In this document: one piece after another, positions 8,627 to 40,819 of the stretch
Layout: every line of letters begins with the position of its first letter
Position numbering within the stretch: position 1 is the first letter of the stretch
NCBI GenBank assembly: GCA_963699545.1
Contig: CAVOUE010000004.1
Location: 128,001-192,000 of the forward strand
Direction: 5' to 3'
Length of the DNA stretch: 64,000 nucleotides
DNA from: Nitrospirota bacterium
GTDB taxonomy: Bacteria; Nitrospirota; Thermodesulfovibrionia; Thermodesulfovibrionales; UBA9159
Notes under the pieces: generated by a model
Seen by the model: the letters and a program-made list of their open reading frames with translations, nothing else
What the model was told of the DNA's origin: nothing
Database searches by the model: none
Translations under genes and position numbers: made by a program

Positions 8627-8988
8627 CTGATCAGTGCACGCCGTATGGAGGCCTTCAACTCCTTGATCTTGACGGGTTTTGGAAAGAAATCATGCACTTC
8701 CGCCCTCAATGCCTCTATGGCGGCGTCAAGATTTGCAAAGGCTGTTATCATGATGACCCTGGTTTCGGGGTAAAGTTGCTTCACTGTCCGCAGGACCTCC
8801 ATGCCGTCTATGCCCTTCATTTTGAGGTCTGTGACCACAACGTCAAATTTCTGATCCTTTAAGCGCGCAAGTGCCGGCTCGGCATTCACGAACGTTTCTA
8901 CCGTGTATCCGTCCTGCTCAAGTGACATCTTCGCCATATCACCTACGATTTTTTCATCGTCGATGACCATAATCCTGTACGTGCTCAT
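8623..8988 (-). CDS. Single-domain response regulator
   Basis: IMVIDDE, VVVTDLKM, MITAF, KP. Confidence 0.9.
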   Translation of the reverse strand: MSTYRIMVIDDEKIVGDMAKMSLEQDGYTVETFVNAEPALARLKDQKFDVVVTDLKMKGIDGMEVLRTVKQLYPETRVIMITAFANLDAAIEALRAEVHDFFPKPVKIKELKASIRRALIR

Positions 8989-23629: not shown

Positions 23630-24961
23630 TTATTCCTCCTTGAGCAATCTCCAGAGGCTCGTTCTCGATATACCGAGGATCTCTGCCGCCTTTGATCTGT
23701 TGCCACCGACCGTCTCAAGGATCTTCTCGGCATAGTCCTTGTTCAGTTCGTCAATAGTCAGCACCTGGCCCGGCTCGCGAGTTTCGATCTGGAACATGGT
23801 GAGGCTCTGGGGCAGACTCTCCGGTGTGATCACAGGGGTCTTCTCCAGTATTATCGCCCTTTCGATGATATTCTCCAGTTCCCTCACGTTGCCGGGGAAG
23901 CTGTAGCGCATGAGGATCTCCATGGCCGGTTTCGCCATGCCCGTTATCTTTTTGCCCGACTTGGGAATGTGTTTCTGGAGCAGGTACGATGCAAGGGGTT
24001 CGATGTCGTCTTTTCTGTCCCTCAGTGCGGGAATGAATATCTCCATGACGTTCAGTCGGTAATAGAGGTCTTCCCTGAACCTGCCCTCTGAGATAAGGTT
24101 CTTTACCGGCTGATTCGTGGCAGCGACGAACCGCACATTCACCCTGATCGGCCTGGTCCCGCCCACTCTGTAGAATTCTCCCTCTTCGATCACCTTCAGG
24201 AGCTTTGCCTGGAGGTTCGGCGCCATCTCGGATATCTCGTCAAGGAAGAGGGTCCCCTGATCAGCGATCTCCACCAGTCCCTGTTTCGTCCTCACCGCGC
24301 CGGTGAAGGCCCCTTTTTCATGCCCGAAGAGCTCGCTGGCGAGGAGGTCTTCCGTCAGGGTCGCGCAATTGATCGAGAGGAAGGGCATGTTCTGCCTTCT
24401 GCTGGTAAAATGTATGATCTTGGCGAGGAGGCTCTTGCCGACCCCTGTTTCGCCGGTGAGCAGCACATTGCAGTCCGAGTCCTTTATCCCTTCAATGACC
24501 TCCAGGATCTTCTTCATGCTCTCGCTCTTGGCGATGACGGAGATCGTCTTGTTCATTCCGAAGTAGGCCTTCAATGCCACGTTTTCTTTCCTCAGGACCT
24601 TTCGCTCGTGGATGTTCTTGACCTTCAGGATGAGTTCGTCAAGGTCAAAGGGTTTGGTGATGTATTCGTAGGCGCCTTTTTTCATCGCCTCCACCGCCGC
24701 ACCGATGCTGCCGAAACCGGTCACGATCATTACCTCGATCTCCGGGTCTTTTTCCTTCGCCCTTTCGAGCAGTTCGATCCCGTTCATCTCGGGCATCCTG
24801 ACATCAGTGATGAGGACGTCGAAATCATCGCGCGTGATCTGCTCAAGGGCCTCACGTCCGTTGCGGGTGCCCGTCACGTCGTATCCTTCTCTCTTGAGAG
24901 TGTTGACGAGGTGCTTGAGGGTTATTTCCTCGTCCTCAGCGATAATTATCTTGAAATTCAT
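23630..24961 (-). CDS. NtrC-family sigma54 response regulator
   Basis: REC, GETGVGKS, GAFTGA, FPGNVRELEN, HTH. Confidence 0.95.
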   Translation of the reverse strand: MNFKIIIAEDEEITLKHLVNTLKREGYDVTGTRNGREALEQITRDDFDVLITDVRMPEMNGIELLERAKEKDPEIEVMIVTGFGSIGAAVEAMKKGAYEYITKPFDLDELILKVKNIHERKVLRKENVALKAYFGMNKTISVIAKSESMKKILEVIEGIKDSDCNVLLTGETGVGKSLLAKIIHFTSRRQNMPFLSINCATLTEDLLASELFGHEKGAFTGAVRTKQGLVEIADQGTLFLDEISEMAPNLQAKLLKVIEEGEFYRVGGTRPIRVNVRFVAATNQPVKNLISEGRFREDLYYRLNVMEIFIPALRDRKDDIEPLASYLLQKHIPKSGKKITGMAKPAMEILMRYSFPGNVRELENIIERAIILEKTPVITPESLPQSLTMFQIETREPGQVLTIDELNKDYAEKILETVGGNRSKAAEILGISRTSLWRLLKEE

Positions 24962-28296: not shown

Positions 28297-29151
28297 CTAC
28301 GACCTTACCACCAACACCGGACAGGGTGCATGACCGATGACCTTTTCAGCGACACTTCCCATGAGGAGTCTCTTCAGCCCGGTCCTGCCGTGAGAGCTCA
28401 TGACAATGATATTCACACCCTCTTTTTTCGCAAGGTCAGTAATGATCTGGTACGCGTCGCCTTCTCCCACAAAGCTCTCCGCCTTTATTCCCTCCGTTTC
28501 TGCCTGGAGCCTGATATCCCTAACATACCCCTTTGCCTTGCTGATCATCTCGTCCACGGCATTGGGGGCCTCCGCGTAAAACTCGGAAGGGACATCAACT
28601 ACTGACACCACCCTCAGTTCACCTCCATAAGACCTCGCAAAGTCAATGGCCCTCTCTGCCGCAATCCTGCTGTACCGGGAACCGTCAGTGGCGATGAGGA
28701 TCTTTTCCCATCCGACACGTGAACCATTGGGAACGACGAGGACATCTCTCTGACTGTGGCCGATGACCCTTGCCGTGACGCTGCCCATCAGAGATTTTTC
28801 GAGATGACGCGTCCCTTTTCTTCCCATGATGACCAGGTCGCAGTTCTCAGCATCCGCGAGGTCAACAATCCTCTCGTAGGGCTCGCCTTCTTCTTCGATG
28901 GATTTTATCAAAGCCCTCTCGGTATTCGCGATTTCCTTCGCGACCCCAAGGGCCTTTTCAAAGGGTTGTCTCAGGGCTGTCCGTATATCCGGCACGCCCA
29001 CAAGTTCCAGGTCCCCCTCGAAGGAGGGTATCACCGAGACGACAGTGATCCAGCTTTTCTCGTTGGAAGCAAGCTTAAAGGACTCCCGGAGAGCGTGGAG
29101 GCTGGATTCTGAGCCGTCCACGCCAACGAGTAGCTTCCGGTATCTTCCCAT
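28297..29151 (-). CDS. Tandem-domain universal stress protein
   Basis: Two USP domains: VGVDGSE and ATDGS; LMGSV twice. Confidence 0.95.
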   Translation of the reverse strand: MGRYRKLLVGVDGSESSLHALRESFKLASNEKSWITVVSVIPSFEGDLELVGVPDIRTALRQPFEKALGVAKEIANTERALIKSIEEEGEPYERIVDLADAENCDLVIMGRKGTRHLEKSLMGSVTARVIGHSQRDVLVVPNGSRVGWEKILIATDGSRYSRIAAERAIDFARSYGGELRVVSVVDVPSEFYAEAPNAVDEMISKAKGYVRDIRLQAETEGIKAESFVGEGDAYQIITDLAKKEGVNIIVMSSHGRTGLKRLLMGSVAEKVIGHAPCPVLVVRS

Positions 29152-29154
29152 GCC

Positions 29155-30243
29155 TTATATCTTACCATGCTCCAGAACTTCCTGTGCCGCCTGACGCTCC
29201 GCCCTGCGTCCCTGCCACATGGCCTTCAGGATTATAAAGGCTCCGGAAAGGAGGGCAAATGCCATTATAGCAAAGCTTGTGCTCTTCAATATTTTCACCG
29301 CAGACTCACTTAGTGTCCCTATGATCCCCAGTTGTGACATATAAACCGGTACCATCAATCCGCGGCTGAAAAGAACAATAACCATTATTACGCCCATGAC
29401 CATTTTAATCATGACGGGCTTTACGTAAGTGGTTCCCATGGCGCCCAACTGGATGCCGAAGAGAGAGCCTGCCAGGATGATCATGGCGAGTCTGATGTCG
29501 ACCAAACCATGCATAGCATATTTGAATGATCCCCCGAGGCCCATAACAAACGCTATCACCAGTTCCGATGCAGAGGCCATCAAACTTGGCGCGCCAAGGA
29601 CATAAATCATGGCGGGGACGCCGATGAAACCTCCCACCGCAATGGTCGCTGCCAGCATGCCTGTTGCGAAACCGAGAGGTATAGTAAAGAGCACGGAAAT
29701 CTTCGCATTCAAGCACTTGAAATAAACCATAGTGCCGGGAATATTTATGGACTGCACCCAGTGCGCCAGTTTGGTAACCGTTTCTTCCTCATGCGAGGTT
29801 CCTGACCTGTTGGTCTTCCATGCATCCCGAAGCACAAAGCCGCCCACAACCGCCAGTATCACGACGAAAGCCGCGCTCACGTAAAGGTTTGAGCCTGCTT
29901 CTCCAAATGCCTTCTTGATGCTCTCCTGGATATGGGCGCCATAGAGAACGCCTGCCTCAGCAGAAATGCCGAGGACTATGCCCATCTTGACGTCAACCTG
30001 TCCGTATTTTGCGCGCTTGAGAGCACCGATAAGCGCTTTCGGGAACTTATGGCACATATTACTTGCCACGGCTACAAGTCCGGGCACGCCCATGCTCATC
30101 ATCGCAGGCGTGAGAACAAAAGCGCCACCTGAGCCGATAAATCCACTCACAAGACCCCCGACGAATCCTACGAAGAAAAGGTAGATGATATGTGCGGTAT
30201 CGAGATTGATGAAATTGGATGCCTGATTTACTATGTCGTGCAC
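29155..30243 (-). CDS. TauE/SafE-family exporter
   Basis: SGFIGSGGAFVLTP, AVGGFIGVP; multi-TM. Confidence 0.85.
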   Translation of the reverse strand: MHDIVNQASNFINLDTAHIIYLFFVGFVGGLVSGFIGSGGAFVLTPAMMSMGVPGLVAVASNMCHKFPKALIGALKRAKYGQVDVKMGIVLGISAEAGVLYGAHIQESIKKAFGEAGSNLYVSAAFVVILAVVGGFVLRDAWKTNRSGTSHEEETVTKLAHWVQSINIPGTMVYFKCLNAKISVLFTIPLGFATGMLAATIAVGGFIGVPAMIYVLGAPSLMASASELVIAFVMGLGGSFKYAMHGLVDIRLAMIILAGSLFGIQLGAMGTTYVKPVMIKMVMGVIMVIVLFSRGLMVPVYMSQLGIIGTLSESAVKILKSTSFAIMAFALLSGAFIILKAMWQGRRAERQAAQEVLEHGKI

Positions 30244-30244
30244 G

Positions 30245-30490
30245 TTATTTTACCTCCTTTCTCTTTTTTGAGGCCTCGATACCCAAAACTGTCCAGAAAT
30301 TGCCTGTAAATGAGCCATGAAAGAAAGAGAAGATGAACGCCGTCAGGACCGGCAATATGGCATATAATCCGCCCCTGCCGACATATTCATTCACAAGATC
30401 TTGCTTCACTAACAGGATTGTGTACAGCGCTAATGAAATAACCCCCATAAGTATCAACTTGCCTATGGGCTTTTTCTTTGTTCTTCCCAT
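30245..30490 (-). CDS. Small 2-TM membrane protein upstream of TauE
   Basis: AFIFSFFHGSFTGNFWTVLGIEA; AGGAGG RBS. Confidence 0.75.
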   Translation of the reverse strand: MGRTKKKPIGKLILMGVISLALYTILLVKQDLVNEYVGRGGLYAILPVLTAFIFSFFHGSFTGNFWTVLGIEASKKRKEVK

Positions 30491-30539
30491 GTCTGCCTCC
30501 TTTTAGTTATGGCACTGAAAGTGCCCGATTTATTTTTTC

Positions 30540-31009
30540 TCAGACACTGTCAGCCACAACTACCAGCGGGCACTGGAGATTCCGCCATGCATCGGAAAGC
30601 CCTGTGCCTTTCCCCTTGCAGTCAACCTCCAGGTTCTCTGTCGACTCGATGACCGCAAAGAGGATCTCTTTTTCAACGCGGTGTAGTCGATGATCGCCTG
30701 TTTCAGACACCCGCTTCTCTGAACCAGCCGGTGGCTGATCCCTTCTTTCCCTAATTCTGAGATGCATTCATCAAACGCCGTGTCCGGAGCATCGGTGGAT
30801 GAGACATACAGAATATCCAGACCCGCTCCGATCCTTTTACAGGTATTCATGGCGTATCTGAATGTTCTTCTGTCCACCTGCCCTTTCATGAGCGCGAGCA
30901 GGACCCTTCTCTCGTCCTTCAGGAATTCCCTGGCTGTTTCAAACTCCCCTTCCTCTGCAAAGGAAACCGCAGACATCAGGTCTTCTATCTTCTTCTTCAT
31001 GCTCCTCAT
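30540..31009 (-). CDS. FAEEGE-helix + USP-like protein (frameshift near 30680)
   Basis: KIEDLMSAVSFAEEGEFETARE...YAMNTCKRIGAGLDILYV...CPLVVV. Confidence 0.65.
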
Positions 31010-31017
31010 GGTAGCGG

Positions 31018-31191
31018 TTACCTTTTCGCTCCGGGTGCCGAAATCCGTGCCGTTTTCCGTGCAACCTGGGTATCACGCTTCCGATCCCTTGCCTCCTCCC
31101 GCATGATTTCCCTGGCTGTTTCAAACTCGCCAGCCTCCGCAAAGGTGATTGCTGTGAAGATCTGTTCAAATTTCTTTGTGAATCCTTTCAT
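31018..31191 (-). CDS. 57-aa FAEAGE peptide
   Basis: MKGFTKKFEQIFTAITFAEAGEFETAREIMREE...; AGGAGG RBS. Confidence 0.75.
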   Translation of the reverse strand: MKGFTKKFEQIFTAITFAEAGEFETAREIMREEARDRKRDTQVARKTARISAPGAKR

Positions 31192-31227: not shown

Positions 31228-31244
31228 TACATGTTTCGTGCCAA
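31228..31244 (-). promoter_or_regulatory. sigma54 promoter (variant -12)
   Basis: TTGGCACGAAACATGTA: perfect -24 element, GT in place of GC at -12. Confidence 0.65.
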
Positions 31245-31554
31245 GCGCGTTCACAGACCTAACCAGCTGAAATTAAGTGGATATTATCTTCTGTCAGACG
31301 TGAGCAGAAAATCTTGGAAGATGCAAAGTGCAACAGGAATAAGATCGCGGTGAGAGGATGGCGCCATAAATCGGCCTGCGGGCTACCGGCAGGACCAAAA
31401 AATATACTGTTGATATTTGCAATGGCAGCAGACTATATGAAACGCCACGGGAGAGAGAGACCAAATCTTGTTCAAGACGGAGAACATGATACAATTGGGT
31501 AGTAAACTCCAGGAACAGGAAAGGGCAGGTTCCTTTATGCCGCATGCCGGATTA

Positions 31555-31983
31555 ATGGATGAGAGTGCCATGGGACCAGAGGAAGGACCGTTACAGCGGG
31601 CGAGACTTCACATTCGGGGTGGCAGGAGAAGGTTGCGACAGGGGAAGCTGCCCGCCGGAATTGTCACCCTTTACGATGCAGTTTGTTCGGCCCTCGAATG
31701 GTATTTTGCATCCCCCGGGCGAAGGGAGGGGCTGATTATCAATGAAGATGATGACCTCCGGGATGATAAAACCCTTTATGAGATATTAACTCGCTCCGGG
31801 GTGCTCGACGGTCGTTTTGATTACAAAGCGTTTAACAAGCTGATAGAAAGGGTGTTGTATACCGACTCTGTGGATTTTGATCACCAGGAGATGTTGCATG
31901 AAGTTGAATCCTTCATGACCCGGCTTGGCGTCATGCCCTTTGATGAAGGAGAGCTTCCCCCGGAGGACCCCTCAACGTTCTAA
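31555..31983 (+). CDS. Hypothetical helical protein
   Basis: Coding-like ORF ending VMPFDEGELPPEDPSTF; start uncertain. Confidence 0.65.
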   Translation: MDESAMGPEEGPLQRARLHIRGGRRRLRQGKLPAGIVTLYDAVCSALEWYFASPGRREGLIINEDDDLRDDKTLYEILTRSGVLDGRFDYKAFNKLIERVLYTDSVDFDHQEMLHEVESFMTRLGVMPFDEGELPPEDPSTF

Positions 31984-32013: not shown

Positions 32014-34014
32014 TCAGTTATTGCCCAGGACCAGTGCAACAGCTTCCTCAATCCTGTCCACCAGGTGGATTGAGATATCTCTTCTGACATCTTCGCCGAG
32101 GCTGTCGATATCGGCCTTGTTCCTCAACGGGAATACCACGGTTCCTACTCCTGCGCGCCGCGCCGCCAGTATCTTTTCCTTAACCCCTCCAACGGGGAGT
32201 ATACTTCCGCTCAGCGTCAATTCACCGGAAATTGCTACGTCCCTTCTTGCCTGTTTTCCCATGAGAAGGGAGAGGAGTGCTATGGCGATGGTGGCTCCTG
32301 CGGAGGGACCGTCCTTCGGGGTCGCTCCGGCAGGGACATGAATATGGATATCGTGGGTATCAAAGAAATCATCCCTGATATGGAAAAAGGAGGCATTGCT
32401 CCGTATATAGCTCAGCGCTGCCTGGGCCGACTCCCGCATAACGTTCCCCAGAGAGCCGGTCAGGATGAGTTCCTTATTCCCCTTCATTTTCGCCGCTTCC
32501 ACAAAGATAATATCTCCCCCTACGTCGGTCCGCACGAGACCTGTGGCAACCCCGATCCTGCCGGTTTCATCAGCAACTTCAAAGAAATATTTTCTCGGAC
32601 CGAGGAATTTCTCCACTTCCTCAGAGGTGACCGTGATATTCTCTGCGGCTTTGTGGTGGACGAATTGAGAGGCGATCTTGCGGCAGACCGTGGCGATCTG
32701 TCTCTCAAGGTCTCTGATGCCTGCCTCCCGGGTATGTTCCTGGACGATTTTCAGAAGGGCGTCGGCGGTGAACTCGGGCGGATAATCCGCCAAACCCTGC
32801 TCCCGTATCTGCCTTGGCACAAGATACCCCAGAGCGATCTTTACCTTTTCATCCTCGGCATAGCCGGTGAACTCCATGATTTCCATGCGGTCTCTGAGAG
32901 GGTCTTGAATAACGTCAGGGATATTCGCAGTTACGATGAACAGAACGTTTGAGAGATCGAAGGGAACGTCGAGGTAATGGTCAATGAAGCTGTGGTTCTG
33001 TTCCGGGTCAAGCACCTCCAGAAGGGCAGAGGCAGAATCACCCTTGAACTCCTGCCCGATCTTGTCCACCTCATCCAGCATGATGAGCGGATTGATGACC
33101 TGAGAGCGGCGTATCTCCTCAATGATGCGTCCCGGCATCGCCCCGGCATAAGTCCTCCGGTGACCCCGTATCTCAGCTTCGTCCTTTATTCCGCCCAGGG
33201 AAATACGGGTGAATTTTCTTCCCAGGGCATCGGCCACGGCCCTCCCCAGAGAGGTCTTCCCTGTCCCAGGGGGTCCCGCAAAGCACAGGACAGAACCCCG
33301 TGAGGATATGGTGGATGTTCGTTTGCTCACGGCCTCCCTGACCGTCCCTCTCACCTCGTCCAGTTTAAAGGGCTTCGTGATGTAGTGGAATGCCCCTTTC
33401 TTCATAGCCTCGACAGCCGAATCCACCGTTGCATACGCGGTTATCATGATGACCTTGGAATCAGGGTATCGAACCCTCGCTTTTTCGAGAAGTTCGACCC
33501 CGTTCACCTTCTCCATTTTCAGGTCGGTCATGATAACATCGAAATCCGAGGTGCGCATTCTTTCCAGGGCTTCCATGCCATTGGCCGCAGTGACAACAAC
33601 GTAGTCCTCTTTCTTCAGTATGTGTTCCAGATTCTTTCTTGCAATCTCCTCGTCATCAACCACCAGGATCCTGGGTTTCTTGTTCGCTATCAATATCTTC
33701 ACTGCGAGATGATCCAGAATTCGTTCCTTGATCCGGTCCAGACCGTAATGCCGCTCATTCAGGATCCTCTCCGCCCTGCCGATGTCCAGATTGTCTTCCG
33801 TCTTCTTGTTCCAGGGAATGCTCAGGAGATATTCGAGATAGGTGAGCCCAATGGCATACTCCGCCGCAGATGGACTTATCTTCGACAGAGTCTCAAGTTC
33901 CCTGTGGGCGATCTGGAGGACACGGTCGGGCATTGCCGACGAGGTGAACATGTCCCTCAGCCCGTCGATGGTTGATGCCGGGAGTTGTTCCCCTGTCTTT
34001 TTAAAGAAACTCAT
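32014..34014 (-). CDS. lon: Lon protease lacking the N-domain, with an inserted receiver domain
   Basis: HYGLDRIKERILDHLAV, REC at about 33325-33675, GPPGTGKT, HRRTYAGAMPG, LDEVDK, PKDGPSAG, VGGVKEK. Confidence 0.9.
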   Translation of the reverse strand: MSFFKKTGEQLPASTIDGLRDMFTSSAMPDRVLQIAHRELETLSKISPSAAEYAIGLTYLEYLLSIPWNKKTEDNLDIGRAERILNERHYGLDRIKERILDHLAVKILIANKKPRILVVDDEEIARKNLEHILKKEDYVVVTAANGMEALERMRTSDFDVIMTDLKMEKVNGVELLEKARVRYPDSKVIMITAYATVDSAVEAMKKGAFHYITKPFKLDEVRGTVREAVSKRTSTISSRGSVLCFAGPPGTGKTSLGRAVADALGRKFTRISLGGIKDEAEIRGHRRTYAGAMPGRIIEEIRRSQVINPLIMLDEVDKIGQEFKGDSASALLEVLDPEQNHSFIDHYLDVPFDLSNVLFIVTANIPDVIQDPLRDRMEIMEFTGYAEDEKVKIALGYLVPRQIREQGLADYPPEFTADALLKIVQEHTREAGIRDLERQIATVCRKIASQFVHHKAAENITVTSEEVEKFLGPRKYFFEVADETGRIGVATGLVRTDVGGDIIFVEAAKMKGNKELILTGSLGNVMRESAQAALSYIRSNASFFHIRDDFFDTHDIHIHVPAGATPKDGPSAGATIAIALLSLLMGKQARRDVAISGELTLSGSILPVGGVKEKILAARRAGVGTVVFPLRNKADIDSLGEDVRRDISIHLVDRIEEAVALVLGNN

Positions 34015-34190
34015 CCTTCACCGGATTTCATCGTTATTCCGCTGCATGCCTTCTATAAGAATAGCATTGTTTCTCCGTGTATTCCAGCGACGAGGTTCTT
34101 TGTCTTGTGCGTGAGACAATTGTCCCCTGCATTGTTGCATGAGTTTTACCTGATGTTGCTTATTGCAATATCACCTGTTAGAATAAAAAT

Positions 34191-35714
34191 ATGCTCAGAT
34201 ATCAGTCGAGTATCCGGCAAAAGATAACTCTCGTATACTACGGCACGGTTGCCGTTGTTGTTGGTCTCTCTCTTTTTGCCTTCCTTGAACTCAGGTTCCT
34301 GGAAAAAAAGATAATGTTCGGAGAGGTGATTTCGGAATTCTTTGATACGACATTGGAGGTCAGAAGATTTGAGAAGAACTTTTTTCTCTACGCGAAGCAG
34401 GACGACTACCGGGAAAATGCCCGCTATGTGGAAAAGGCCCAGGAACTGCTCGATAAGAATCTGAAGGGTCTGAGCACCATTACCGAGCTTGGGCAGATCA
34501 TCTCTCTGAGAAGCGACCTCAGACGCTATCAGGATCTCATGAGAGAATACGCGTCCGCCGTTCCTGAGGTGGTGAGACCAGCACGGGGCGGCGGTCCTGA
34601 ACAGCACGGAATGGAGAGAACGATCCTGGAGGGAAAAATAAGGGAAACGGGCAAGAACATTATAGCGGTCTCAGAAGAGATATCGAAGACCGAGCGGAAA
34701 AATCTTCAATCCATACTCTACAAGTCCCAGAGAATGCTCATTCTCTCCATTTTCTCCCTTTCACTTCTGGCCCTTCTCATCGGCCAGGTGTTATCGAGGA
34801 TGGTTGTGCGGCCCCTCAAATCCCTGGAAGAGAGCATGAGTCGGATTGCCGAGGGAAGGTTTGAGAAGGTATCCATACATTCCCATGACAGGGAGATCGT
34901 ATCCCTCGCCACCGCCTTTAATAAGATGCTCAAGGAACTGGAGTTGAGGCAGAAACATCTTGTCCAGTCAGAGAAACTGGCATCCCTTGGAACGCTCCTC
35001 TCCGGGGTGGCCCATGAATTGAACAACCCCCTGTCGAACATCTCCTCGTCATGCCAGATACTTATGGAAGAGATCGGAGAGGCTGACGGGGAATATAAGA
35101 AGGAATTGCTCTCACAGATCGATGAGCAGACGGACAGGGCCCGGAACATCGTCCGTTCCCTGCTTGAGTTCTCGCGGGAAAAGGAATTCAGGAAAGAGAC
35201 GCTGCCGCTCAAGAGTCTTTTCGAAGAGACCCTCCGGTTTGTGAAAGGTCAGGTGCCGACGAAGATTTCGGTCACCCTCGATATTCCCGAGGATATCGCC
35301 ATACGTGCGGACAAACAGAGAATTCAGCAAGCATTTCTCAATCTCGTGAAGAATGCCATAGAGGCGGTTGCTGACGAAGGAGAAGTGGTCATCAGGGCGA
35401 AGAAACACAGGGCCATGGATAAGACCGGGGAAACAGCTGAGCTCTACAGCACCATGAAATATCGCGGCAAGTGCACCATCGAAGGAGATACCGTTGATAT
35501 CGAAATAAGGGACACCGGTGCCGGGATAGCCCCGGAGATCCTTCACAGGGTCTTTGATCCGTTCTTCAGCACGAAGGATGTGGGGAAGGGATCCGGTCTT
35601 GGGCTCTTCATCGTCCACGAGATCATAGAAGAGCATGATGGTTGTATCGCCGTGGAGAGCGAAAGGGGAAAGGGAACGGTCTTTTTTATAAGTCTTCCGA
35701 CCAGGGTCGAATGA
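34191..35714 (+). CDS. HAMP sensor histidine kinase
   Basis: LEVRRFEKNFFLY, 2 TM, AHELNNPLSNI, GSGLGL. Confidence 0.95.
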   Translation: MLRYQSSIRQKITLVYYGTVAVVVGLSLFAFLELRFLEKKIMFGEVISEFFDTTLEVRRFEKNFFLYAKQDDYRENARYVEKAQELLDKNLKGLSTITELGQIISLRSDLRRYQDLMREYASAVPEVVRPARGGGPEQHGMERTILEGKIRETGKNIIAVSEEISKTERKNLQSILYKSQRMLILSIFSLSLLALLIGQVLSRMVVRPLKSLEESMSRIAEGRFEKVSIHSHDREIVSLATAFNKMLKELELRQKHLVQSEKLASLGTLLSGVAHELNNPLSNISSSCQILMEEIGEADGEYKKELLSQIDEQTDRARNIVRSLLEFSREKEFRKETLPLKSLFEETLRFVKGQVPTKISVTLDIPEDIAIRADKQRIQQAFLNLVKNAIEAVADEGEVVIRAKKHRAMDKTGETAELYSTMKYRGKCTIEGDTVDIEIRDTGAGIAPEILHRVFDPFFSTKDVGKGSGLGLFIVHEIIEEHDGCIAVESERGKGTVFFISLPTRVE

Positions 35715-35782: not shown

Positions 35783-37156
35783 GTGATGCGAATGCAAAAC
35801 GGTGCAAGAATATTGATCGTGGACGATGAAAAGATCGCCCTCAGGAACCTCGAACATGTAATGAAAAAGGAGGGCTATGCAGTAGCGGCCACGCAGAGCG
35901 GCCAGAATGCCCTCAAACTCCTGGAAGAGCAGCAGTTCGATGTTGTTCTCACCGACCTTAGAATGGAAAAGGTCGACGGGATGCAGATACTGAAGAGATG
36001 TCGCGAACTCTCTCCGGATACCGAGGTGATCATGATAACAGGCTTTGCCACGCTGGAGTCGGCGGTGAATACAATGAAGCACGGGGCCTTCTTTTACATA
36101 GCAAAACCTTTTAAGTTGGACGAGGTGAGGAAAGTGGTGAGGGAGGCTGTGGAAAAAGTGAGGCTGAAGACCGAGAACAGACAGCTGAGAGAGCAGCTCG
36201 AGAAGTATCAGGGGAAGGTGAAGATCATCACCCAGGATGCCAACATGGAGAGACTCCTGGATACGGCGCGGCAGATCGCTCCCACTGACTGCAATGTCAT
36301 CATTACGGGAGAGAGCGGCACGGGCAAGGAACTGTTTGCCCGATACATTCATTTCAACAGTAAACGTTCTGAGGGCCCCTTTTCTGCAATAAATTGCGGG
36401 GCGTTTACTGAAGAACTTCTGGGGAACGAGCTCTTCGGCCATGAAAAAGGCGCTTTTACCGGCGCCTCCACGATGAAGAAGGGATTGATAGAGACAGCCT
36501 CGGGAGGCACGCTTTTTCTTGACGAGATCACAGAGATGCCCCCTTCCATGCAGGTGAAACTGCTGAGGGTGGTGCAGGAGAGGGAGGTTCTGAGGCTTGG
36601 CGGAACAGAGCCGGTGCGCGTGGATGTGAGATGTATCGCTGCGACCAACAGGGATCTGCAGGACGCGACAAGAACGGGGCACTTCAGACAGGACCTCTAT
36701 TTCAGACTGAATGTGGTGTCGCTGCATATACCGCCCCTTTCGGAACGGAAAGAGGACATACCCCTGTTGGGCTACTATTTCCTGAAGAAGTATTCCTCCC
36801 TGATGAAAAAGAATGTCACGGAGATATCCCCTGAGGTGATCACGCTCCTCATGAACTACGGTTTCCCGGGGAATGTGAGGGAACTGGAGAATATCACAGA
36901 GCGGGGTGTTGCCCTTTCCAACGGGACGACCATTGAGGCGGCACATCTCCCCGAAGACCTGAGGGAACTCAGCATTCGGACATTCAGGAAGAGAGAGGGG
37001 AAGATCCCTTCCCTGGAAGAGCAGGAAATGGCGTATATCCAGTGGGTGTTGAATGAGGTGGGTGGCAACAAGACACTGACCGCCCAGATACTGGGAATAG
37101 ACAGGGTCTCCCTCTGGAGGAAGCTGAAGAGGTACGGATTAGAGTCCCAGCTGTAA
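35783..37156 (+). CDS. NtrC-family sigma54 response regulator
   Basis: REC, GESGTGKE, GAFTGA, HTH. Confidence 0.95.
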   Translation: MMRMQNGARILIVDDEKIALRNLEHVMKKEGYAVAATQSGQNALKLLEEQQFDVVLTDLRMEKVDGMQILKRCRELSPDTEVIMITGFATLESAVNTMKHGAFFYIAKPFKLDEVRKVVREAVEKVRLKTENRQLREQLEKYQGKVKIITQDANMERLLDTARQIAPTDCNVIITGESGTGKELFARYIHFNSKRSEGPFSAINCGAFTEELLGNELFGHEKGAFTGASTMKKGLIETASGGTLFLDEITEMPPSMQVKLLRVVQEREVLRLGGTEPVRVDVRCIAATNRDLQDATRTGHFRQDLYFRLNVVSLHIPPLSERKEDIPLLGYYFLKKYSSLMKKNVTEISPEVITLLMNYGFPGNVRELENITERGVALSNGTTIEAAHLPEDLRELSIRTFRKREGKIPSLEEQEMAYIQWVLNEVGGNKTLTAQILGIDRVSLWRKLKRYGLESQL

Positions 37157-37175: not shown

Positions 37176-37961
37176 TCAGACCGGGTGGACGAGCACAAGC
37201 GGTTTGTTCGTGACCCCCGGCTCCCTGTCCGAGAGGATAGCTGCGGCTTTGCTCAGTTCTGACGGTTCGTTCCCTCCTGCCGGCATGATGATCATGGAGA
37301 CGGAATATCCGTCTGCGACCCTCAGGATCTCCTCGTCGGGATACCCGGAGCGGATGACCTCTTTTGTCTCGACCTGCCGCTCGGTGAGGTTCTTTTTTAC
37401 TTGTTTGACGAGGACAGAAGTTTGCCGTTTGACCTTCTCCAGTTCTGTCTTCTCCCCTGCGCTGTAAATGTGTATCGGCACTATGCCCAGAAGAATGACC
37501 GCTGAACCGGTAGCCTTCACCTCTTCCGAGATAAGATCCAGCGTGGCCGGTGGAACATCCGTATTGTCCAGCGGAACAAGAATGTTTCCAGGGATGATTG
37601 AGACCGGGCAGGGCGCGCTTTTCACTATCGATTTGTATCGGGGAGGAGAGAAGATGATATCCGCGTTTTCCGCGCCTGCCAGTTTTACGATCTCCTCGGC
37701 GGGGTCGCCGTCCTCGACAACGATGCGGCTCTTTGTGTCTGCCGCTCTTTCAAGGACCCTCCGTGCATCTTCCACATACCGTGCAGACTCTATTCGTGCC
37801 ATCTGCTCCGCTCCCGGACCTGCATCGTAGTCAACGAACATGTTCGCGTTGAATACATGAAGCACAAGAAGTTCCCCTCCCTGTTCCCTCACTTTTTGTA
37901 TCCCGTACTTCAAAGCTGTTTTTGAATTCAATGATCCATCATACGCCACCAATGCCTTCAT
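37176..37961 (-). CDS. Tandem-domain universal stress protein (atypical)
   Basis: KALVAYDGS, APCPV, ILVPLD; lacks the G-x2-G-x9-GS ATP motif. Confidence 0.8.
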   Translation of the reverse strand: MKALVAYDGSLNSKTALKYGIQKVREQGGELLVLHVFNANMFVDYDAGPGAEQMARIESARYVEDARRVLERAADTKSRIVVEDGDPAEEIVKLAGAENADIIFSPPRYKSIVKSAPCPVSIIPGNILVPLDNTDVPPATLDLISEEVKATGSAVILLGIVPIHIYSAGEKTELEKVKRQTSVLVKQVKKNLTERQVETKEVIRSGYPDEEILRVADGYSVSMIIMPAGGNEPSELSKAAAILSDREPGVTNKPLVLVHPV

Positions 37962-37994: not shown

Positions 37995-38011
37995 AGCATA
38001 GACTGTGCCAA
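37995..38011 (-). promoter_or_regulatory. sigma54 promoter
   Basis: TTGGCACAGTCTATGCT. Confidence 0.85.

Positions 38012-39426: not shown

Positions 39427-40819
<1,393 letters not shown>

Follow-up and report, generated by a model that had tools for sequence, protein, structure and literature searches.

Proteases of the AAA+ class are normally regulated through separate adaptors or through the availability of their substrates, and the response regulators known to steer them, RssB with ClpXP and CpdR with ClpXP, do so in trans. Here we describe a Lon protease gene in which a receiver domain (REC) is built into the protease itself; the gene, which we call REC-Lon, lies in a 64,000-nucleotide stretch of a Nitrospirota genome (assembly GCA_963699545.1, contig CAVOUE010000004.1, positions 128,001 to 192,000; hereafter the window, whose own numbering is used throughout). 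Like RssB and CpdR, REC-Lon would tie a phosphorylatable REC to regulated proteolysis; unlike these separate adaptors, its REC is part of the protease polypeptide, and the CpdR model NF046022 scored it at 64.7 bits against a cut-off of 180, a generic REC similarity only.

The closest described system is that of Desulfovibrio vulgaris Hildenborough, where DVU3303, DVU3304 and DVU3305 were proposed to form a three-component system (Rajeev et al. 2011, PMC3333781, in excerpt). According to the same excerpts, DVU3303 is a response regulator ('RR ... containing a lon protease') annotated as 'ATP-dependent protease La, truncation'; the activator DVU3305 targets its own operon and DVU3302-3298, which encode hypothetical, membrane and UspA proteins; the genes show induction at high pH, under heat and in stationary phase; and the DVU3305 site is the palindrome GTTGC-N5-GCAAC (Tables S7 and S9). 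Orthologues of the Lon response regulator, together with the conserved binding site, are reported there for other Desulfovibrio, Thermodesulfovibrio yellowstonii, Thioalkalivibrio and Dechloromonas. Excerpts of Kazakov et al. (2015, PMC4641369) list the DVU3305 regulon likewise, and in both sources DVU3303 heads the DVU3303-3305 operon.

The window resembles this system in that a truncated Lon response regulator adjoins a histidine kinase and a sigma54 response regulator, that an adjacent, sigma54-dependent operon encodes hypothetical, membrane and UspA proteins, and that the palindrome GTTGC-N5-GCAAC is common to both. It differs in that lon is divergent from the kinase-activator pair, whereas DVU3303 is the first gene of a single operon, and in that TTGT or TTGA mostly takes the place of TTGC in the −12 element of the window-type promoter. 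The palindrome sites, the sigma54-type promoter and the synteny therefore lead us to see this locus as corresponding to the D. vulgaris module, and REC-Lon is a further member of a family known since 2011. A preliminary description of this DNA, made from the sequence alone, had known of no characterised example of such a protein; that statement holds for the biochemistry but not for the architecture or the hypothesis, both of which have been in print since that year (PMC3333781). The reading that we favour, and consider probable, is that REC-Lon supplies the proteolytic branch of a conserved stress-signalling module of three genes (kinase, sigma54 activator and REC-Lon) in which phosphorylation tunes proteolysis.

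Domain architecture of REC-Lon

The REC-Lon gene (32014..34014, minus strand) encodes a response-regulator Lon protease of the DVU3303 type, 666 residues long, in one uninterrupted open reading frame (ORF). From its N terminus the protein comprises a Lon helical region (residues 1-113; 33676..34014), recognized in alignments with 7p6u_A and 3m6a_A and as five helices in the structure model described below, the inserted receiver domain (residues 114-236; 33307..33675), an AAA+ module with its lid (residues 237-460; 32635..33306) and the Lon_C protease domain (residues 462-663; 32026..32631), all on the minus strand. In Pfam the receiver matched Response_reg (PF00072) at residues 116-225 with an E value of 1.9e-30, AAA and Lon_lid matched at residues 243-382 and 405-458, and Lon_C (PF05362) matched at residues 462-663 with an E value of 7.5e-78. 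The PUA-like N-domain of Lon (LON_substr_bdg, PF02190) gave no Pfam match in REC-Lon, and neither Sigma54_activat (PF00158) nor HTH_8 was matched at an E value of 0.01 or better. The ORF cannot be extended upstream, and the relatives are likewise about 666 residues long. The NCBIfam model TIGR00763 ('lon', endopeptidase La) recognized the protein at 694.9 bits (cut-off 608.05), with the match split over two stretches, and the score for NF008053 (552 bits, cut-off 891) was below threshold.

Residues 14-113 aligned with residues 249-348 of chain 7p6u_A, and residues 237-663 aligned with residues 350-775 of the same chain. The Bacillus subtilis fragment 3m6a gave the same pattern, with the N-terminal region of REC-Lon matching residues 10-103 of 3m6a_A. 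Since both flanks are collinear on 7p6u_A, the REC is a clean single-point insertion of about 123 residues, and REC-Lon is an otherwise collinear LonA that begins at the helical region following the N-domain. Its AAA+ module, lid and Ser-Lys protease domain aligned end to end with canonical LonA (TIGR00763, MEROPS S16; 3m6a, 6u5z, 7p6u and 7fd4) with E values of 1e-150 to 1e-161, and the helical region preceding the AAA+ module is kept. Canonical LonA differs in possessing the PUA-like N-domain and the long helix, both absent from REC-Lon, and in falling outside the REC-Lon clade; the canonical LonAs in our set (L050-L068) skip the 123-residue insertion.

The receiver motifs begin at residues 118 (VVDDEE), 161 (IMTDLKM, containing D164), 190 (MITAY, containing T192) and 212 (ITKPF, containing K214), and those of the protease at residues 247 (GPPGTGKT), 286 (RRTYAG), 313 (LDEVDK), 566 (PKDGPSAG, containing S571) and 611 (VKEKIL, containing K614). 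Conservation was assessed over 43 full-length sequences, namely the window protein and those of 42 related loci. The receiver residues D120, D121, D164 and K214 were invariant in 43/43, as were the Walker A lysine K253, the Walker B residues D314 and E315, the pore-loop Y289 and the catalytic pair S571 and K614. Position 192 is Thr in 40 of the sequences and Ser in the other three. The preliminary description had read the gene as a Lon without an N-domain in one continuous frame, with a complete receiver of about 115 residues ahead of Walker A, and these points were borne out; each motif that it quoted, from ILVVDDEE to KEK, is at the place it gave.

An AlphaFold2 model of REC-Lon was built from a 79-sequence alignment and had a mean predicted local distance difference test (pLDDT) value of 82.8 and a predicted template-modelling (pTM) score of 0.60. 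In this model the 113 N-terminal residues form five helices, which make up a three-helix bundle and the helices that run on to the AAA+ core. The earlier proposal that the protein starts at the three-helix bundle was thus right as to the bundle, and is refined by the additional helices. The REC, which adopts the standard (beta-alpha)5 receiver pattern, is placed between the last helix before the core (residues 93-111) and strand 1 of the AAA+ module (residues 242-246). Its long alpha5 helix (residues 218-239) continues directly into that strand, ahead of Walker A (residues 247-254), so that just a few residues, and no long coiled coil, join the REC to the AAA+ core. Such a rigid connection in the model suggests allosteric coupling between the two domains. 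A Foldseek search with the model retrieved ordinary LonA chains only, and no REC-bearing Lon was found among solved structures by either Foldseek or sequence matches to the Protein Data Bank. In its REC subtype, with the NtrC1 receiver 1zy2 matching at an E value of 5.8e-21, and in the position of the REC directly N-terminal of an AAA+ core, REC-Lon resembles the NtrC1, DctD and NtrC activators; unlike them it has a Lon-type AAA+ module and no DNA-binding domain, and the likeness is one of analogy, not of membership.

Distribution and ancestry of the family

The search for REC-in-Lon proteins and their gene neighbourhoods that had been proposed earlier recovered 119 relatives among those listed, as well as a syntenic module at related loci. 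Among the best 120 database relatives of residues 1-300, the first of which is the window's own protein, 120/120 contained PF00072 and 119/120 also contained Lon_C; the sole relative without Lon_C (P0012) is a 455-residue piece on a 2-kb contig. Most of the listed relatives are about 666 residues long and 67-94% identical. Of the 150 proteins listed from a library of representatives clustered at 50% identity, 17 matched across both junctions of the insertion in one stretch, and further fragments spanned one junction. A continuous match through the helical region, REC and Walker A was found in 68/401 sampled genomes of the window's own phylum (50/328 of those of high quality), where it occurs patchily (35/64 in one family, 0/75 in another and 0/28 in a third), and in 47/401 sampled genomes of a second phylum, the one that holds the Desulfosarcina widdelii locus (L036). 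The family is thus common in anaerobic, sulfur-cycling Nitrospirota and Desulfobacterota, with about 12-17% of the sampled genomes carrying it. Two independent studies provide contigs (X2 record 15, covering 33119-34200, and X3 record 17, covering 32900-33815) that bridge both junctions without joints. The preliminary description had named a fusion lacking read support or homologues as the outcome that would speak against it; the opposite was found, and the homologues and the independent contigs bridging both junctions exclude chance or artefact.

A FastTree phylogeny of the AAA+ and protease part separated 53 REC-Lons from 14 canonical LonAs, a small outgroup that includes this genome's own LonA, with an SH-like (Shimodaira-Hasegawa-like) support of 0.97. 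This separation, in which the position of the root was outside the test, fits a single origin of the REC insertion. A canonical LonA that retains the N-domain is also encoded in this genome, on contig C9, where the genome's single PF02190 match lies. Because this canonical enzyme is kept, REC-Lon is an extra, specialised Lon. The canonical gene (G000:C9:186000-189600, L092) is split by a frameshift into a 233-residue ORF with the N-domain and an overlapping ORF of 622 residues; together with a frameshift in hyp149, a neighbour of REC-Lon described below, this is probably a sign of indel errors in the 13-contig assembly.

Two other groups of proteins emerged from the searches. Three proteins of 375-382 residues (P0140, P0145 and P0193) and the region G350:C11:7409-8194 matched residues 3-300 of REC-Lon in one stretch with 35-46% identity. 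These proteins of about 380 residues have no Lon_C match and at most a weak AAA match, and they may be a shortened branch of the family without the protease part, as opposed to fragments of contigs. Long multi-stretch matches among the representatives were considered as other arrangements of REC and Lon and were rejected, as they proved to be Lons without REC that have tandem AAA+ modules. These proteins (P0136, P0143, P0146, P0151-P0154, P0164, P0190 and P0212) are 889-1379 residues long and contain two or three such modules, P0164 with N-terminal ankyrin repeats and P0212 with a LON N-domain; they are unrelated to the window.

The gene module and its regulatory DNA

Divergent from lon lie the genes for a membrane sensor histidine kinase (34191..35714, plus strand; HAMP-HisKA-HATPase_c, 507 residues) and a sigma54-dependent response regulator (35783..37156, plus strand; REC-Sigma54_activat-HTH_8, 457 residues). 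Downstream of lon and on the same, minus strand is an operon that begins with a small ORF of 57 codons (31018..31191) and continues with hyp149 (30560..31009), an 81-residue membrane protein conserved in the operon (30245..30490), a TauE/SafE-family anion exporter (29155..30243) and a tandem universal stress protein (USP; 28297..29151). A second USP gene (37176..37961, minus strand) lies beyond the activator. The REC of the activator is 58% identical to that of REC-Lon over 117 residues (E value 7e-42) and, at 142 bits, was its top non-self match among the 31 REC matches in the genome, the runner-up reaching 113 bits and 48% identity.

The neighbourhood was compared at 51 REC-Lon loci, many of which are short contigs. 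The count excludes L050, which had been flagged through the REC of an unrelated activator, L008 and L066, in which the lon frame is in pieces, and L069, which is cut after residue 106. Close orthologues of the activator were present at 29 loci, of the kinase at 23 and of both at 22, and those of TauE, USP and hyp149 at 22, 24 and 29, respectively; the thresholds were our own and were tuned to close orthologues (at least 300 bits for the kinase), so that the Desulfobacterales loci mostly fall below them. Both kinase and activator were found in 13/27 loci of 12 kb or more.

The 57-residue protein, whose ORF is unannotated, has a strong ribosome-binding site and is conserved at about 35 related loci, carries the N-terminal motif FAEAGEFETARE. 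The same N-terminal helix, FAE(A/E)GEFETARE, is present in hyp149, together with a weakly USP-like body. The tail of the small protein is basic and ends in RKELRA(D) or LRAPG. No significant Pfam or NCBIfam family was found for the small protein, hyp149, the 81-residue membrane protein or the 171-residue ORF described at the end. Compared with its homologues, hyp149 is frameshifted within 30500-30660: past '...IIDYTALKK', its conserved C-terminal part (...EILFAV...CPLVVV) has to be read in a different frame, probably through an indel error in the assembly and not because hyp149 is a true pseudogene. Encoded at the head of the operon beside lon, the small protein and hyp149 could be substrates or adaptors of REC-Lon. 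A single prediction of a complex between full-length REC-Lon and the 57-residue protein, made without controls, gave no answer (score 0.00, mark 0.32) and counts neither for nor against such a role.

In the divergent intergenic region between lon and the kinase gene lies a palindrome, GTTGCTTATTGCAAT (34155..34169), with one mismatch to GTTGC-N5-GCAAC, 22 nt ahead of the kinase start and 141 nt ahead of the lon start. A second match, GATGCAAAGTGCAAC (31320..31334, read on the plus strand), lies about 80-90 nt ahead of the −24 element of the operon's sigma54-type promoter. With up to one mismatch allowed, the 64-kb window contains four such sites against 1.46 expected, a number reached in 5 of 100 shuffled sequences, and two of the four are these matches in expected regulatory regions. 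Across 53 related stretches there were 77 sites against 16.6 expected, nearly all of them intergenic and upstream of lon, the kinase gene or the small ORF; at the Desulfobacterales loci they occur before lon in tandem pairs about 87 bp apart. Nine loci (that of the window, L001, L002, L008, L013, L017, L034, L045 and L047) have the palindrome at the fixed distance of 22 nt before the kinase start. Such a fixed site could serve autoregulation of the kinase-activator operon and activation of the divergent lon gene.

A sigma54-type promoter, TGGCAC-N5-ATGTA (31228..31243, minus strand), precedes the small ORF by 36 nt. Of 38 regions preceding the small ORF, 30 contained the pattern [TC]GGCA[CT]-N5-[ATG]TG (30 of 35 loci), against about 0.1 expected, a descriptive count, as the relaxed pattern was drawn from the very sequences counted. 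The −12 element of these promoters is mostly TTGT or TTGA, not TTGC, and the conserved promoter emerged only when the upstream regions were aligned and the −12 element was relaxed: the strict sigma54 consensus was not enriched over the window (31 matches against 27.5 expected), and when GC at −12 was obligatory just 14 sigma54 sites lay near genes across the loci. An element TTTCAA-N4-TTA, which we take to resemble an integration host factor site, occurs within 45 nt before the promoter in 18/30 cases. The second USP gene is preceded by a near-consensus sigma54-type site, TGGCACAGTCTATGCT (37995-38010), with one mismatch.

Proposed control of proteolysis by phosphorylation

Under the favoured reading, in which REC-Lon is the protease arm of the three-gene module, the membrane kinase would phosphorylate two paralogous receivers. 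The phosphorylated activator would turn on the sigma54 operon, and hence the small protein, the USP-like protein, the small membrane protein, the TauE exporter and the USP, while phosphorylation of D164 in REC-Lon would alter the alpha4-beta5-alpha5 face of its REC. In parallel with induction of the operon, this alteration would tune ATPase activity or ring assembly, and with it proteolysis; it could reach the AAA+ core because alpha5 runs as one helix into the first strand beside Walker A. That the adjacent kinase is the phosphate donor, which way proteolysis would shift and which proteins are degraded are all points that we infer. With a conserved receiver built into the protease, a sensor kinase would have direct control of degradation alongside that of transcription. 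If REC-Lon does work in this way, it would provide the first demonstration of an AAA+ protease as a direct response-regulator output; DVU3303 is a genetically tractable member of the family.

Phosphorylation-gated proteolysis by REC-Lon is plausible, given what the comparisons revealed about the gene and its surroundings. The preliminary description went further, in that it saw proteolysis as the output of a response regulator and phosphorylation as a replacement for recognition by the N-domain. The former is reasonable in view of the conserved pocket, the adjacent kinase, the paralogous REC of the activator and the cofitness in D. vulgaris, where excerpts of Trotter et al. (2023, PMC10102598) give DVU3303:DVU3305 a pairwise value above 0.9; for the latter we found no support.

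Several observations weigh against the favoured reading. The cofitness could reflect polar insertions, because DVU3303 is the first gene of its operon, and the fitness signs in chlorate, in which DVU3303:DVU3305 were detrimental and the target, the putative anion transporter DVU3299, was needed (PMC10102598, in excerpt), are puzzling in that they misfit a simple activation cascade. The assignment of the locus as counterpart of DVU3303-3305 was made from the papers' descriptions, synteny, the DNA motif and relatives in Desulfobacterales (L003-L012 and L036), not by alignment with DVU3303. No sigma54-type site precedes lon in the window by the consensus scan. With a pTM of just 0.60, the placement of the domains in the model is uncertain, and a survey of full-text literature, which leaves most subscription journals uncovered, returned no biochemical or structural study of a REC-Lon. 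At three loci (L016, L032 and L048) alternative partners, a single-domain REC and a kinase of about 570 residues, lie beside lon. Finally, the REC of Lon and that of the activator showed no sign of co-evolution across 25 genomes: the identity of same-genome pairs was 0.560 and that of cross-genome pairs 0.559, and 1647 of 5000 permutations reached the observed value. Subsets of contact positions of our own choosing gave 0.589 against 0.594 for alpha1 and 0.680 against 0.685 for alpha1 with the beta5-alpha5 loop (same-genome against cross-genome). As same-genome pairs are no more alike, a shared kinase gains no support from this comparison, and gene conversion or co-evolution between the two RECs was rejected for want of an excess of identity within genomes.

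The phosphorylation of receivers controls ring assembly in activators of the NtrC1 and DctD type. A more specific version of the favoured reading, which we put forward tentatively and think doubtful as a whole, is that a Lon lacking its head acquired the REC, and the position of that REC before an AAA+ core, as a copy from the adjoining sigma54 activator. The Lon ring would then be phospho-switched in an NtrC1/DctD-like manner, one kinase would command a transcriptional and a proteolytic arm, and the small protein and hyp149 could be dedicated substrates or adaptors.

Among the alternatives, the one that survives best, although we think it unlikely, is that REC-Lon is a negative-feedback protease which, when phosphorylated, ends the response by degrading a part of its own pathway, be it the activator, the kinase or the induced stress proteins. 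The location of lon beside the kinase and activator genes and the REC type that it has in common with the activator are what such a protease would be expected to show, and the palindrome that lies 22 nt ahead of the kinase start here and at eight related loci suits autoregulation; the odd fitness signs in D. vulgaris, too, indicate a circuit that is not a simple activation cascade. The cofitness above 0.9, however, means that the Lon mutant behaves like mutants of the kinase and activator, though polarity could explain this.

We give somewhat less credence still to a REC with a mainly docking or competitive role, either as a phosphate sink for the kinase or as a platform for substrates or adaptors that replaces the N-domain, with proteolysis left ungated. 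Single-domain RECs that act as sinks are common. The missing N-domain would accord with a platform of this kind, as would the two conserved proteins with a common N-terminal motif that are encoded beside lon in most loci. Neither a sink nor a platform, however, needs the full Lon catalytic set or the D-D-D-T/S-K pocket, both of which are intact in 43/43 sequences, and the rigid connection from alpha5 to the AAA+ core points instead to allosteric coupling. That the gene is an assembly chimera or a decaying pseudogene, a suspicion which the frameshifts elsewhere in this assembly (in hyp149 and in the canonical lon on C9) might raise, is refuted by a frame uninterrupted over 666 codons with all functional residues conserved, by the recurrence of the architecture in hundreds of relatives, from database searches and genome surveys, across two phyla, and by the independent contigs that bridge both junctions, and we attach practically no weight to it.

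At five loci (L016, L030, L032, L033 and L048) REC-Lon is followed by a single-domain receiver of 126-129 residues and a kinase of about 570 residues, which replace or add to the kinase-activator pair. Within the window, a 171-residue ORF (31468-31983, plus strand), convergent with lon, matched no family and is conserved in place (216 bits) at L002 only. The region is rich in two-component genes, with at least three further receiver-domain genes in the window (24617-24952, 8629-8976 and 40462-40812), among them one for a protein of about 494 residues whose REC is 48% identical to that of REC-Lon.

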